Below, one piece after another: positions 58,418 through 63,648 of a DNA stretch of 64,000 nt. Position 1 is the stretch's first letter; every line of letters begins with the position of its first letter. Origin of the DNA: Burkholderiales bacterium (GTDB taxonomy: Bacteria > Pseudomonadota > Gammaproteobacteria > Burkholderiales > JBDZVW01); assembly GCA_035700525.1 (NCBI GenBank), contig DASSON010000073.1, positions 2,266 to 66,265 on the forward strand. The letters are read 5' to 3'. A model generated the notes under the pieces. It did not search any database. It was given only the letters and a program-made list of their open reading frames with translations, and was not told where the DNA came from. The translations under genes were made by a program, and so were the position numbers.

Positions 58418-59428
58418 TCAGAACGCAGGCTGCATCACCCGCAGCACTGGTTTCTCATTGACGTTCTCCAGCGGCAAATAGACTTGGTGCGTGCCCGGAT
58501 CCACGGCAATCGTGTGCGCCTTCGCGGCGACGCGGGCCTTCCACATCTTCCGAATCGAATTTCCAGTAACCCGGAAAACGGTCACCACACCACTCTCGCT
58601 GGCAACGTAGAGCAGCGACAGACCAGGATCAAAGGCCAGCACATCAGGCGCGTTGCCCACCGGCTTCGTTGCCAGAACACGCTTGCTCTGCATATCGAAA
58701 ACCAGCAGCCTTGCATTGCCTTCACAGGCGATGAAAGCCAGCCTGCCGTCCGGTTCGATAAGCAGGCCGTGATTATGATCGGCCCCCGGCAACCGATGGC
58801 GGGTAACAATCCGGTCCGTGGCAGGGTCGATTTCCACCAGATCGTCTCGTGTTTGCACATTCACGAAAATGTGCCCGGAGACCAGATCGTACTGCGTGTT
58901 GCCAGCCTCGCCGCTCAACGGAATGGTGGCGATGCGCCGGTTGCCTTGAACGTCGATTACGGTTTCCGTGCCGCCCGCTTCGTCGGATACATAGAGTTTG
59001 CGCGCCGACGGAACGTAGGCCATGCCGTCGGGGTAGTCTCCGCCGGGGATCGCAGCAATCACGTTGAAGCTCGTTTCATCGATCACCGCGACGTCATTGC
59101 GCCCGGTGGCGGATGCATAGACCCGGCCCAGCGACGGAATCACAAGCACGCCATGGACCTTGCTTACACCGGATATGTCGGCCACGACCTTACGAGTGCG
59201 TGTGTTGACCACAGTGATCGAACTGTCACCCAAATGCGCAATAAATAAAAGGCGTTTTGCCTCATCATAGCCTTGGTAGTCGAAGCGGGTGGCGCGACCA
59301 TGGAGCGGAATATCCGCCGCTGTACGAAGCCGAAAGGCTTCTGTCGCAGCCGAAACTGCATGTGCGTTGAACAACGAGCCGACTAAAACAATGAAAATCA
59401 GAGTTGAGGCAATGTCCGTGATCTTCAT
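58418..59428 (-). CDS. secreted YVTN/YncE-type beta-propeller repeat protein
   Basis: Signal peptide and repeated ...V.VID... / ...P.G.A... blades (SITVVNTRTRKVV, DVAVIDETSFNVI, ETVIDVQGNRRI). Start is ATG at 59428 or 59443. Confidence 0.75.
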   Translation of the reverse strand: MKITDIASTLIFIVLVGSLFNAHAVSAATEAFRLRTAADIPLHGRATRFDYQGYDEAKRLLFIAHLGDSSITVVNTRTRKVVADISGVSKVHGVLVIPSLGRVYASATGRNDVAVIDETSFNVIAAIPGGDYPDGMAYVPSARKLYVSDEAGGTETVIDVQGNRRIATIPLSGEAGNTQYDLVSGHIFVNVQTRDDLVEIDPATDRIVTRHRLPGADHNHGLLIEPDGRLAFIACEGNARLLVFDMQSKRVLATKPVGNAPDVLAFDPGLSLLYVASESGVVTVFRVTGNSIRKMWKARVAAKAHTIAVDPGTHQVYLPLENVNEKPVLRVMQPAF

Positions 59429-59505: not shown

Positions 59506-59913
59506 TCAACCGTGCCGCAAAGATGCAATCAGCGGGCATTTCATTGCACCACGCGCGGAGCCGCATCGGCCTACCAGTTGGCTGAGCGCAAACTGGATAC
59601 GCCGCAGATGAGCCAGCTTCTCGCGCACATCACGAAGCTTGCGCTCGGCCAGGCGGCGGGCCTCGTCGCAATGGGTGCCATCCTCCAGCTTCAGCAACTC
59701 GCTTACCTCGTCCAGACTGAACCCCAGTCGCTGCCCGGCCTTGATGAACCCCAGGCGCGCAAGATCCGCCTGACCGTAGCGACGGATACCGCCCGCAGGT
59801 CGCTGAGGCTTTGGCATCAGACCCTTGCGCTGATAGAAGCGAACGGTTTCGACGTTGACTCCTGCTGCATCCGCCAACGCGCCAACGGTAAGGCTGTCCG
59901 GTGCGCTCTTCAT
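59506..59913 (-). CDS. merR: Hg(II)-responsive transcriptional regulator MerR
   Basis: [40 protein letters not shown]...[10 protein letters not shown]...[13 protein letters not shown] carries the three Hg-ligand Cys. Start trimmed to the ATG at 59913. Confidence 0.93.
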
Positions 59914-59918
59914 TCCGC

Positions 59919-59949
59919 TTGACCCCGTACTTGTGTACGGAAGTAACTT
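59919..59949 (+). promoter_or_regulatory. mer operator/promoter (PmerT with 19-bp spacer)
   Basis: TTGACC (59919-24), dyad CCGTAC-ttgt-GTACGG (59925-40), TAACTT (59944-49). This is nearly the Tn21/Tn501 merO layout. Confidence 0.8.
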
Positions 59950-59955
59950 TACTCC

Positions 59956-60324
59956 ATGGCATTGGATCGCACCAACCTGAGTAACCGTGCGACGGGACAC
60001 AGCGCACTGCTGACCGGCGGGCTCGCCGCGATCCTCGCCTCCACCTGCTGTCTGGGACCGCTGCTGCTGGTCATGCTTGGCTTTTCGGGAGCATGGATCG
60101 GCAACCTGACTGCGCTCGAACCCTATCGCCCGATCTTCATCGGTGTGGCCGTGACGTCCCTGCTCTTCGCCTCGTGGCAAATCTGGGGGACCGCCGTCTG
60201 TGCTTCAGGAAAAGCATGTGCGAGCCTGCGAGCCGCACGATTCTACAAGCTGCTGTTCGGCGTAGTGACCGTGCTGGCGCTCATTGCCCTTGGCTATCCA
60301 TACGTTGCTCCTTTGTTCTATTGA
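59956..60324 (+). CDS. merT: mercuric ion transport protein MerT
   Basis: [41 protein letters not shown] with the CC pair, plus a second Cys pair CASGKAC. Confidence 0.93.
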
Positions 60325-60334
60325 GGAACTCGCC

Positions 60335-60628
60335 ATGAAACGCTCTCTTGCCGCCCTCGTTTTTATTGCCTTCTCCGGCCTCGCGTTCAATACATCGGCT
60401 ATGACGAAAACAGTTACCTTGTCGGTACCAGGCATGACCTGTCCGGTGTGCCCGATCACCGTGAAGAAAGCGTTGATGAAGGTCAATGGTGTCAGTGGGG
60501 TGGTGGTCAACTATGACAAAAAGCAAACCGTGGTTACGTTCGATGATGTCAAGACCACGGCCGAAGCCCTGACGCGCGCGACCATAAAGGCGGGCTATCC
60601 GTCAACGCTGGCGGGGAGTAGGAAATGA
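60335..60628 (+). CDS. merP: periplasmic mercuric ion binding protein MerP
   Basis: Signal peptide, then VTLSVPGMTCPVCPITVKKAL (GMTCxxC HMA fold). RBS GAGGAA. Confidence 0.93.
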   Translation: MKRSLAALVFIAFSGLAFNTSAMTKTVTLSVPGMTCPVCPITVKKALMKVNGVSGVVVNYDKKQTVVTFDDVKTTAEALTRATIKAGYPSTLAGSRK

Positions 60629-60837
60629 CTTCCGTGATTCTGGAATCGGTCGTGACATGCCCTGAGTGTGGGTATGTCAGGGCCGAAACGATGCCCAAGG
60701 ACGCCTGTCAGTGGTTCTACGAGTGCGAGCAATGTCACACGCTGCTCAAGCCCAAGCCAGGTGATTGCTGCGTGTTCTGCTCTTACGGCTCGATGCCGTG
60801 CCCGCCCTGCCAAACGCACTGCAGTTGCTGCGGTTGA
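60625..60837 (+). CDS. small Cys-rich GDCCVxC-motif protein
   Basis: 70 aa with 13 Cys (CPEC, CQWFYECEQC, GDCCVFC, CPPC, HCSCCG). ATGA overlap with the merP stop. Confidence 0.7.
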   Translation: MTSVILESVVTCPECGYVRAETMPKDACQWFYECEQCHTLLKPKPGDCCVFCSYGSMPCPPCQTHCSCCG

Positions 60838-60958
60838 TCGCGCCGGCTGCACCACTGCGGTCATGCGCCACTCGTAGCCGACGCACTGGATCAGGGACTC
60901 AGCGCCGGGCTATTCATGTCGCGAAAGCGACCGCCGGCGGAGTTCCTCGCACGGCGGC

Positions 60959-62272
60959 TCAGAGCGGATGGACTCGCGGATGTGTCTCTTCCCCCCAACG
61001 CCACAGGATAAATCCGGAGACGAGCATCGCACACGCGACGAACCAAAAGCCGCTTTCCAGCGCACCAGTAGCAGCTGCGGCAAAGCCCATGCCGAGCGCG
61101 CCGAAGCCGTAGCCGAGGTCGCGCCAGAGACGATAGACGCCAAGCGCCGATCCGCGCCAGCCCGGATGAGCGATATCGGCGACGGCAGCGATCAGGTTCG
61201 GATACAGCATCGCCATGCCGAGTCCGCTCAGTGCGGCGCAGAATGACCACCACTCCACGCGCTGAAAGATCGGCATCAGCGCCACTCCGGCACCACTCAG
61301 CCACATGCCCGACACGTTGAGCGCATGGCGTCCAATCCGGTCGGAGAGTTTGCCGGCAAAAAGCTGGCCGCCGCCCCAGACGAATCCGTAGCAGCCGACG
61401 ATCCAACCAATATGAGCCACACTGACTCCATGGCGGTGAAGATAGACCGGATAGAAAACCCATACCAGTGCGTCGACGAATTTTTCGACCAATCCCGCCT
61501 GACTGAGTGCAAACAAGCGCCGGTCGCGCCACGACACCAGACTGAAAACTTCTCGTCCGCTCAGCTTGTTCGAGGCCATATCCGCGTCCGTCGTATGCTG
61601 TCTGATTTCAGCCAGTGCCCACGGACGGGTATCTCGTACCCGGGTGACGCACAGCACCAGAGCCGGAAACATCACAGCAACGCCGAACAACGCCAGACCG
61701 TCGCGCGGGCCGAGCCTCGCTGCAAGATAGCCGGTAACGATGCCCGCGATCGTCATGCCCACGTAGCCGGAAAATTCATTGAGTCCGACCGTCACACCGC
61801 GCTCATCAGGCCGCGTCACATCGAGCATCGCGGTCACGGTCATCGACCATGTCAGCCCCTGATTGACACCCAGCAGGACCGTCGCGGCGACAATCCAGTT
61901 CCAGCCTGTTCCCCACAGCACCATCGCCGGAATTGGCAGCGCGCACAGCCAGCCCAGCAGCAGCACGCGCTTGCGGCCGACGTGCTCCGAGAGCTCGCCA
62001 CCGAAGAAATTGACCACCCCCTTGACGAAACCGAACGCGGCGACGAAAGTCGTGAGCAGCACGAAGGAACCGCGCGGCACGCCGAACTCGCTTTCGGCAA
62101 GCGCCGGCACCACTGTGCGCATCATGCCGATCGCGCATCCCACCAGAAAGACCTGCAGCAGCAGCTGCAGGAACGGCTCGAGGTTCTCGCGTATGCCGTG
62201 CCGCAGTTCCGCCGCCTGAACTACGCCGCGCGGCACCGTTTCAAGCGGCGATATTGGTCGCGATGATTTCAT
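60959..62272 (-). CDS. MFS transporter
   Basis: 437 aa, polytopic. The ORF-track start overlaps the upstream gene by 32 nt; an alternative GTG at 62236 would remove the overlap. Confidence 0.8.
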   Translation of the reverse strand: MKSSRPISPLETVPRGVVQAAELRHGIRENLEPFLQLLLQVFLVGCAIGMMRTVVPALAESEFGVPRGSFVLLTTFVAAFGFVKGVVNFFGGELSEHVGRKRVLLLGWLCALPIPAMVLWGTGWNWIVAATVLLGVNQGLTWSMTVTAMLDVTRPDERGVTVGLNEFSGYVGMTIAGIVTGYLAARLGPRDGLALFGVAVMFPALVLCVTRVRDTRPWALAEIRQHTTDADMASNKLSGREVFSLVSWRDRRLFALSQAGLVEKFVDALVWVFYPVYLHRHGVSVAHIGWIVGCYGFVWGGGQLFAGKLSDRIGRHALNVSGMWLSGAGVALMPIFQRVEWWSFCAALSGLGMAMLYPNLIAAVADIAHPGWRGSALGVYRLWRDLGYGFGALGMGFAAAATGALESGFWFVACAMLVSGFILWRWGEETHPRVHPL

Positions 62273-62975
62273 CCATATTCGCCGGCCGCGGTGGAATCTC
62301 GCGAGTCACGTATTCGATGAACGCGTCCCGGTCGGCGATCGCCAGCGCCGGATTCCAGCGCCGCTCGAATCCCAGGGTCGAGGACGGCTTGCCGGAAAGC
62401 CCTGCACCGCAGGCGCTGCCGGCCTGGTGCGCCGGGAAAAGCTCGATGATGTCGGGCAGCGGCAGCAGCTTGTGCCGCAGCGTATCGAACAGCACGCCTG
62501 CCATTTCGCGCTCGCGCCCGGCAAGATCCGGCCGCCCGGTGGCACCGACGAAAAGTGTGTCGCCGGTGAGCACGAACCACGGCTCGTCGCCGCGCCGCCG
62601 GTCGGTGACCAGCAACGAGGCGCTGTCGGGCGTATGTCCCGGCGTATGCAGTACGCGAAGCACGACATTGCCCGCCTCGATAACCTGGCCGTCGTGCAGC
62701 GGTTCGAAATCGAACTGCACCACCCCGACATCACTTTCGTGCAGGCAGTATGGCGCGCCCATTTGCGCGGCGAGCCGACGCCCGCCCGAATAATGATCGG
62801 CGTGGACGTGGGTATCGATGACATGGGTGATTTGCGCGTTCGCGTGCTTTGCCTGTTCGACGAACCAGCCCTCGTCGCCGGCGACAACGTCCACTGCAAC
62901 CGCCTTGCCCAGGCCGCCGCAGCCGAAAAAATAGGACAAGGTCGAACCCCTGCCGGCAAGCTGTTTGAAAAACAT
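62241..62975 (-). CDS. MBL-fold hydrolase, persulfide dioxygenase (ETHE1/Blh)-like
   Basis: THVHADHYSGG and HTPGHTPDS metal-binding motifs. RBS AGGAGG before the ATG at 62975. Confidence 0.85.
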   Translation of the reverse strand: MFFKQLAGRGSTLSYFFGCGGLGKAVAVDVVAGDEGWFVEQAKHANAQITHVIDTHVHADHYSGGRRLAAQMGAPYCLHESDVGVVQFDFEPLHDGQVIEAGNVVLRVLHTPGHTPDSASLLVTDRRRGDEPWFVLTGDTLFVGATGRPDLAGREREMAGVLFDTLRHKLLPLPDIIELFPAHQAGSACGAGLSGKPSSTLGFERRWNPALAIADRDAFIEYVTREIPPRPANMDEIIATNIAA

Positions 62976-62985
62976 CGGCCACCTC

Positions 62986-63648
62986 CTATCGGCTTCCGGT
63001 CTCCAGCGGAAGGCCGCGCGCCTGCCATTCCGCGACGCCATCATCCAGACGTGATACGCGATAGCCGCGCTTGTGGAGCAGTGCCGCCGCGTCACGCGCC
63101 ATCATGCAGAACGGTCCACGGCAATAAGCCACGACCGGCTTGCCCCTGGGTATTTCGCCGAGGCGTTTCTTCAGTTCTTCGAGCGGAATCGATCGCGCGT
63201 ACGGCAGGTGGCTGGCTGCAAATTCTTCCTCCGGACGCACGTCGAGCACCACCACGTCGCCCGCCCTCGCCCATCGCAGAATGGTTCGCCGATCGACGCC
63301 GCGCAGATCGTCTCCCGCCGTGACCAACTGCTGCAGCGCCGCCTGCAATTCCAGCAGCCGCTCCTCGGCGAGCCCGCGCAGGTCCACCCACAGCCGGGCG
63401 ACTTCCGGGTCGGCCAGCCGGTAGAACACATATTTCCCTTCCCTGCGCGCGTCCACCACGCGCGCTGCGCGTAGCGCCTTGAGGTGGGCGCTCGCGAGCT
63501 TCACGCTGATGTCGGCCTGGGCGGCAAGCGTCTCGACCCGTTTTTCGGATTGGCACAGCAATTCGATGAGCTCGAGCCGCTTCGGACTGGCGAGCGCTTT
63601 ACTGACACGGCTGACCTGCTCGTAGAGAAGATTCTTCGCTTCACGCAT
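62986..63648 (-). CDS. ArsR/SmtB-family regulator fused to a rhodanese domain
   Basis: N-terminal wHTH ALASPKRLELIELLCQSEKRVETLAAQADISVKLASAHLKALRAA. C-terminal rhodanese with active-site loop AYCRGPFC. Confidence 0.85.
   Translation of the reverse strand: MREAKNLLYEQVSRVSKALASPKRLELIELLCQSEKRVETLAAQADISVKLASAHLKALRAARVVDARREGKYVFYRLADPEVARLWVDLRGLAEERLLELQAALQQLVTAGDDLRGVDRRTILRWARAGDVVVLDVRPEEEFAASHLPYARSIPLEELKKRLGEIPRGKPVVAYCRGPFCMMARDAAALLHKRGYRVSRLDDGVAEWQARGLPLETGSR

Follow-up and report, generated by a model that had tools for sequence, protein, structure and literature searches.

A merA-less mer cassette with a conserved, apparently translationally coupled GDCCVxC gene: a candidate cytosolic Hg(II) acceptor behind mercury importers

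Near the end of a 64,000-nucleotide stretch of DNA from a Burkholderiales bacterium (contig DASSON010000073.1; this whole stretch is called the window here) lies a four-gene mer cassette in which merR is followed divergently by merT, merP, and a small cysteine-rich gene of the GDCCVxC family, with no gene for the mercuric reductase MerA. Import of Hg(II) without reduction is textbook-toxic, and reductase-less merRTP modules have for this reason been dismissed as defective. The cassette described here is not a local deletion scar; dozens of genomes, and plasmids as well, have merR-merT-merP-GDCCVxC in this order with no merA, and such a conserved, widespread cassette is probably a working non-reducing way of handling mercury rather than a broken operon. 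With moderate confidence, we favor the reading that the GDCCVxC protein is a cytosolic acceptor or buffer (a chaperone) for Hg(II) handed over by MerT, within a self-contained merA-less cassette. More tentatively, GDCCVxC proteins at large may represent a widespread MerA-free Hg(II) route, in which a thiol-rich acceptor is coupled to CC-pair importers and possibly processes Hg(II) further. The locus itself, a Tn5563-type merR-merT-merP module plus an NF041374 gene, belongs to an already catalogued, uncharacterized kind. What is new is that merRTP cassettes carry a conserved fourth gene, by its position translationally coupled, whose domain is elsewhere physically fused to Hg importers, and this turns a puzzle into a testable hypothesis of a second, non-volatilizing bacterial way to handle mercury.

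The regulatory and transport part of the locus is canonical (Table 1). MerR has all three Hg-ligand cysteines, in THC, GRC, and KCP contexts, and its gene is transcribed divergently from merT; the operator spacer between the two contains the dyad CCGTAC-N4-GTACGG. A sigma-70 promoter scanner gave no match at this operator, as expected, because the scanner allows only spacers of 16–18 bp and the operator has one of 19 bp. The merR–merT intergenic region (59913–59956) is just 42 bp, as is the corresponding spacing on an Acidovorax plasmid (L099), and the −10 element ends 6 nt upstream of the merT ATG; merT would therefore be transcribed nearly or wholly leaderless, and merR probably too. The window MerT retains the CC pair of the first transmembrane segment (TM1) and the C-x5-C motif of the cytoplasmic loop. 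The merP stop codon and the start codon of the small open reading frame (ORF) overlap as ATGA, with a GGAG/AGGA Shine–Dalgarno sequence immediately upstream, an arrangement by which the GDCCVxC gene appears translationally coupled to merP. Beyond the small gene, a terminator scan of the 121-bp noncoding gap found no intrinsic-terminator-like site, and the convergent major facilitator superfamily (MFS) gene that follows, which bounds the cassette and lies outside it, is not conserved as a neighbor across related loci. Curated profile scores and direct reading of the sequence thus bear out the gene and operator assignments of the preliminary description of this locus, from merR to the MFS gene, including the 13-cysteine ORF joined to merP by the ATGA overlap. 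Its statement that neither merA nor a remnant of it is visible at the locus also stands, as tblastn with Tn21-type MerA found none in the window at E ≤ 1e-3.

The small protein matches NF041374, “GDCCVxC domain-containing (seleno)protein,” over profile positions 1–57 of 58 (E = 1.7e-29). It matches 0 Pfam families and no other NCBIfam entry, and metallothionein, HMA, and TRASH profiles are likewise unmatched. Its cysteines lie at positions 12, 15, 28, 34, 37, 48, 49, 52, 59, 62, 66, 68, and 69, and the GDCCVFC motif occupies residues 46–52. Nine cysteines are invariant among 101 aligned members of the family (C12, C15, C28, C34, C37, C48, C49, C52, and C59), all of which are found in the window protein, and a C-terminal CC is present in 74 of the 101. 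Clustering divides the family into more than 5,100 groups at 90% identity and 3,098 at 50% identity, and the gene occurs in at least 599 species genomes and on 352 plasmids, including plasmids of Pseudomonas, Klebsiella, Aeromonas, and Enterobacter; because the family is so large and nine of its cysteines are invariant, the small ORF is not a chance one. An AlphaFold2 model gives a confident small fold (mean predicted local distance difference test score 83) whose first part is a zinc-ribbon-like beta-hairpin. Neither a profile search of the PDB (best E = 0.06, rubredoxin knuckles/zinc-knuckle noise) nor a Foldseek search of the PDB (none below E = 1; best E = 1.2, the weak top matches all being zinc ribbons) found a solved homologue. 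NF041374 is a named yet uncharacterized family, and a search of a literature library for GDCCVxC found no paper mentioning the term, in keeping with the preliminary description, which knew of no biochemical characterization. With respect to the “(seleno)” in the family name, the window gene has no in-frame TGA and is the all-Cys form; two TGA-bearing matches that were opened proved degenerate or frameshifted, and no selenocysteine member was confirmed. A separate irregular copy, at 251–442 of a locus in a MerA-bearing genome (L167; G087:C38), runs out of frame centrally, motif included, and then returns to frame, and is a pseudogene or an assembly error.

The coupling of this gene to mercury import extends well beyond the window. 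The flanks of 80 related loci, each taken to at most 10 kb, are free of a true MerA, and in about 40 of these loci the GDCCVxC gene has merT+merP, merTP, or merF directly upstream, so that it follows different Hg importers, namely MerT with MerP, a MerTP fusion, or MerF. Where an importer gene (merP, merTP, or merF) meets the GDCCVxC gene, about 52 junctions in total, the spacing is precisely −4 nt in 25 and almost always within −13 to +8 nt. Of 45 GDCCVxC-linked MerT proteins, 44 have retained the CC pair of TM1 together with C-x(4–6)-C in the cytoplasmic loop (39 of 39 for merA-linked MerT), which argues that import and the cytoplasmic hand-off site are under selection. The order merR / merT-merP-GDCCVxC without merA is annotated on the Acidovorax plasmid mentioned above and, inside a Tn3-family transposon, on a Pseudomonas aeruginosa plasmid (L100/L102); a Paraburkholderia plasmid (L101) provides a further cassette record, whose gene table, which is incomplete, has entries only for merP and the GDCCVxC gene. 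We take the L100 transposon to be Tn5563a, from its gene content and not from sequence comparison with the published element.

A tree of MerT proteins, built on an alignment of only 122 columns, bears on the age of this architecture. Rows linked to merA and rows linked to GDCCVxC are clustered (13–14 label changes versus about 31 in shuffles), and the MerT of the L100/L102 type groups with other GDCCVxC-linked MerT proteins. The two operon kinds also interleave, with at least five forced switches, and a single ancient merA-less lineage is thereby disfavored, within the poor resolution that 122 columns afford. The window MerT falls in a diversified clade of 16 rows (80% support only), every member of which is GDCCVxC-linked and whose end branches measure 0.1–0.9 changes per site; because of this placement, the architecture here appears old and not the product of a fresh deletion.

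Surveys of whole genomes give the same picture from the side of the reductase. Of 400 genomes sampled evenly from the window's class, 69 have a GDCCVxC gene over the cut-off, 68 have MerA over the cut-off, and 7 have both (odds ratio 0.5, p = 0.11). The 63 merT loci in this sample adjoin merA in 39 cases, GDCCVxC in 13, and both in none; MerA is found anywhere in just 2 of the 13 genomes with a merT–GDCCVxC locus, and none of the 78 GDCCVxC loci has merA within 20 kb. At the level of the phylum, 391 sampled genomes include 116 with the GDCCVxC gene, 26 with MerA, and 11 with both; some genomes are common to the two samples, and related genomes are not independent. GDCCVxC carriers without MerA therefore number 62 of 69 and 105 of 116, about 90% in each sample, closed genomes included. 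In a closed, 100%-complete genome from the taxonomic order of the window's organism (G149), merT likewise adjoins a GDCCVxC gene, and no MerA exceeds the cut-off. The published census of MerA and MerB has no treatment of merTP-only operons (PMC8261052).

Strict exclusivity of merA and GDCCVxC, which held in the class sample, is broken by five genomes of the phylum sample. In these genomes, all of one other family, the GDCCVxC gene follows merA on the same strand at a distance of 0.45–1.3 kb, at the end of operons that run merT-merP or merF, merA, optionally merB, a gene for a CopZ_Nterm_CC protein, and GDCCVxC (L168–L172; G756, G750, G609, G593, G418). The MerA of L168 lacks the N-terminal HMA domain (NmerA), as the profile match starts at position 87 of 560, and the similar length of the other four (ORFs of 476–483 residues from the first start codon) suggests that they lack it as well. 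A GDCCVxC gene after an NmerA-less merA would fit a small trans-acting Cys protein doing the job of NmerA, that is, a chaperone role. In the same operons, the 145-residue CopZ_Nterm_CC protein, a “putative iron-sulfur cluster-binding metallochaperone” (NF047645), makes with GDCCVxC two different small Cys-rich proteins after merA. Two suggestions of the preliminary description are changed by these distributions. It had the small protein standing where merA should be; the operon indeed has no merA, but replacement is an overstatement, given the complete operons in which the gene sits downstream of merA. And provision of merA in trans, which it offered as a way out of the toxicity problem, fails as a general explanation, with so few merT–GDCCVxC genomes carrying MerA at all.

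Domain fusions point in the direction of the importers too. Among 50%-identity representatives of the family, the domain being fused C-terminally, GDCCVxC is joined to MerC in P0250 (PF03203, 43.1 bits, above cut-off), to MerT-like segments of two transmembrane helices with the TM1 CC pair in P0161 and P0241 (MerT scores under cut-off), and to an HMA domain in P0154, and it occurs in tandem in P0123. The importer fusions would place the domain where the cytoplasmic tail of MerT, MerF, or MerC would receive metal.

Together, these observations suggest a route for Hg(II) through the cassette. MerR would detect Hg(II) and activate the 19-bp-spacer promoter, MerP would bind Hg(II) in the periplasm, MerT, using its CC pair and cytoplasmic C-x5-C loop, would move it through the membrane, and the GDCCVxC protein, made in step with MerP, would accept it from MerT in the cytoplasm. 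The model is consistent with a zinc-ribbon-like scaffold bearing an internal CC-x-C site and a flexible C-terminal CC, which could act as a thiol-rich metallochaperone or buffer. In a cell that has MerA, the GDCCVxC protein could feed it; in one without it, the case here, Hg(II) would be retained or handed on to cellular thiols instead of being volatilized. We infer the Hg binding, the hand-off from MerT, and the benefit to the cell from the genes, operator, coupling, conservation, distribution, and fusions observed above, and the benefit would be expected at low environmental Hg doses rather than near the minimum inhibitory concentration (MIC).

Several considerations weigh against this acceptor reading. 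Hg binding by the GDCCVxC protein is itself a prediction. In published tests in which the whole transposon Tn5563a was introduced, the MIC of Hg(II) fell by a factor of 2 or more in six strains and rose in two Pseudomonas strains (PMC4447125). Since the entire element was transferred, the fourth gene was presumably there too, and the results speak against a sequestration that confers resistance at doses near the MIC; low doses lie outside the range of these tests. The proposal of the preliminary description that the Cys-rich protein is the sink thus survives as an acceptor or buffer but is weakened as a pure sink that gives resistance. The genome that holds the window is, moreover, only 84% complete. 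Finally, merT adjoins only 13 of the 78 GDCCVxC loci of the class sample, so the domain is broader than mer and not mercury-specific; stand-alone copies follow CopA-type (Cu-type) ATPases or sit among unrelated genes, and one protein of 793 residues (P0185), a PAS-PAS-GGDEF diguanylate cyclase, carries a complete C-terminal GDCCVxC domain (104 bits). The latter fusion points to sensing instead and suggests that the domain can serve signaling as well, as a metal or redox input to cyclic di-GMP pathways.

These last points are the substance of a first alternative, in which GDCCVxC is a general module for thiophilic metals (Cu, Ag, Cd, Zn) or for redox sensing and acts in the window in regulation or signaling and not as an Hg sink. 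The 65 class-sample loci that do not adjoin merT favor it, as do the CopA-type and unrelated contexts, the diguanylate cyclase fusion, and the surroundings of the cassette, a metal island of Cu/Ag type whose genes encode a P-type ATPase, a multicopper oxidase, and an outer-membrane efflux protein. The small protein, however, has no DNA-binding or enzymatic domain; tight links to Hg importers recur and include physical fusion; and the regulator at this locus is a MerR assigned to Hg(II) at equivalog level, with an operator of canonical form. On balance, we consider this alternative unlikely.

A second alternative holds that merA, or an unrecognized Hg(II) reductase, acts in trans, with the small protein as a feeding chaperone that replaces the N-terminal metal-binding domain of MerA. 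In the assembly of this organism (3.02 Mb, 221 contigs, 84% complete), no protein exceeds a MerA cut-off, the best scores being 353 bits versus 454 for TIGR02053 and 255 versus 600 for NF010311. Searches of the same assembly also found no merB or merC and, by tblastn, no merD, merE, or merF; it has one merT and one GDCCVxC gene only. All that two MerA models and tblastn brought up are paralogous flavoproteins, and none of them has the C-terminal CC pair. One, split over two contig ends (C97:15179–17302 and C24:11587–11874; L001), is a DedA/TVP38 membrane domain fused to a MerA-like flavin adenine dinucleotide (FAD)-disulfide oxidoreductase of PRK06370 type, and another, on C146, is a PRK06370-type oxidoreductase (NF004992, 773 bits). 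A third, on C23, is glutathione reductase, and the remainder are lipoamide-dehydrogenase-type proteins. Similar open frames of about 710–760 residues are sub-cut-off MerA matches in many class-sample genomes, and the ORF upstream of the DedA-fused oxidoreductase here looks by eye like what we take to be an arsenosugar-type radical S-adenosylmethionine (SAM) protein. For a reductase in trans speak the fragmentation and incompleteness of the assembly, plasmids often being lost from binned genomes; the position of GDCCVxC downstream of NmerA-less merA in five genomes; the two FAD-disulfide oxidoreductases on C146 and C97/C24, whose substrate is unassigned; and the frequent presence of Tn5563a on the same plasmid as a complete mer operon (PMC10488154), as is seen for the Tn5563a-like element of the L102 plasmid. 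But no match passes the MerA cut-offs, the best candidates lack the CC pair and belong to the families just named, and MerA is absent from the great majority of GDCCVxC-positive genomes in both samples, closed ones included, and we therefore regard this explanation as quite improbable.

The last alternative, a degenerate remnant in which a recent deletion took merA, the rest is decaying, and the small ORF is a passenger, has very little left to recommend it and is largely refuted by the conservation data: although the Tn5563a module has been called a defective merRTP operon and a deletion derivative of Tn5044 (PMC4447125, PMC10488154), and although the two kinds of MerT interleave on the tree, none of the four genes is disrupted and each reaches or exceeds its curated cut-off, MerT has kept its cysteines, no MerA fragment lies in the window, the same order with conserved overlap junctions is found in about half of the related loci, the window MerT sits in its diversified GDCCVxC-linked clade, and the deletion scar that the preliminary description had envisaged is not seen in an architecture conserved across many lineages.

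We return to the cassette, which we read as one of import and cytosolic acceptance, for its surroundings. The window copy is chromosomal-looking, and no transposase or resolvase was found among the large ORFs scanned from 46 to 64 kb, terminal inverted repeats not having been searched. Convergent with the cassette is a minus-strand row (60959–63648) of genes for an ArsR-family regulator fused to a rhodanese domain, a metallo-beta-lactamase-fold protein, and the MFS transporter, which looks like a sulfide- or persulfide-responsive BigR/Blh-type unit. On the other side, directly downstream of merR on the same strand, is a gene for a secreted YncE/cytochrome-D1-like beta-propeller; as listed, its ORF overlaps merR, and its likely start is the methionine of MKITDIAS near 59428. 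The Acidovorax plasmid, too, has a “cytochrome D1 domain-containing protein” annotated close to its cassette. In several unrelated loci, a gene for a class I SAM-dependent methyltransferase adjoins the GDCCVxC gene (L104, 3755–4402; L101, 6266–6880; L072; L084); the Runella copy immediately precedes merTP within one operon, and the Paraburkholderia copy is convergent and downstream.

Table 1. Features of the mer cassette and its flanks (positions in the window)
Feature	Position	Strand	Evidence or remarks
Secreted YncE/cytochrome-D1-like beta-propeller	58418–59428	-	
merR, Hg(II)-responsive MerR regulator, 135 aa	59506–59913	-	TIGR02051 160.2 bits (cut-off 150.85); Pfam MerR_1, MerR-DNA-bind, MerR
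mer operator/promoter	59919–59949	+	Read directly from sequence
−35 element, TTGACC	59919–59924		
19-bp spacer	59925–59943		
Dyad half-sites	59925–59930 and 59935–59940		Within spacer
−10 element, TAACTT	59944–59949		
merT, inner-membrane Hg(II) importer, 122 aa	59956–60324	+	NF010314 152 bits (cut-off 150); PF02411 130.8 bits
merP, periplasmic Hg(II)-binding protein, 97 aa	60335–60628	+	TIGR02052 112.1 bits (cut-off 92.55); Pfam HMA domain; GMTCPVC
GDCCVxC-domain protein, 70 aa, 13 Cys	60625–60837	+	NF041374 101.8 bits (cut-off 40)
Noncoding gap, 121 bp	60838–60958	.	Between GDCCVxC gene and convergent MFS gene
MFS transporter, 437 aa	60959–62272	-	PF07690 148.9 bits; convergent; bounds cassette, outside it
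Metallo-beta-lactamase-fold protein	62241–63095	-	
ArsR-family regulator fused to rhodanese domain	62986–63648	-	

Four kinds of known system invite comparison. With the mer operons of Tn21 and Tn501 (merR-merT-merP-(merC/merF)-merA-merD-merE), the window shares MerR, the 19-bp spacer with its dyad operator, MerT, and MerP with Hg-binding cysteines; it differs in having no merA, merD, or merE, in its 42-bp merR–merT intergenic region, and in the GDCCVxC gene at its distal end. NmerA and MerH, the TRASH-domain Hg chaperone of Sulfolobus, are small cytosolic Cys-bearing acceptors of Hg(II), the role proposed here for GDCCVxC, whose fold and sequence are unrelated to theirs, with no match to HMA or any other Pfam family. 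Bacterial metallothioneins of the SmtA/BmtA type are likewise small, cytosolic, and Cys-rich (13 of 70 residues are cysteine in the window protein), so that a thiophilic-metal buffer is plausible; in contrast to them, the window protein has no sequence or family match there, is predicted to have an ordered zinc-ribbon-like fold with invariant Cys spacing, and is encoded in an operon with importers.

The fourth system is the closest. The merRTP module of the Pseudomonas Tn3-family transposons Tn5563 and Tn5563a, for which Yeo et al. 1998 is reportedly the source, has the same four-gene order as the window, merR / merT-merP-GDCCVxC, without merA. The window copy differs in lying in a metal island with no Tn3 transposase seen between 46 and 64 kb, and its small protein shares about 61% identity with the Pseudomonas counterpart. 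The papers cited here on these transposons annotate only merR, merT, and merP and leave the fourth gene unmentioned (PMC4447125, PMC10488154), and the spread of Tn5563a, present in 16 of 45 related plasmids and contigs, has been called “surprising” (PMC10488154). If GDCCVxC proteins do serve a MerA-free Hg(II) route, the abundance and good conservation of merRTP transposons and chromosomal cassettes that were supposed to be defective would make sense, and such a route would bear on the reading of metagenomic merA surveys, on the retention of mercury in biomass, and on the role of Tn5563-like elements on clinical plasmids of Pseudomonas, Klebsiella, and related bacteria.

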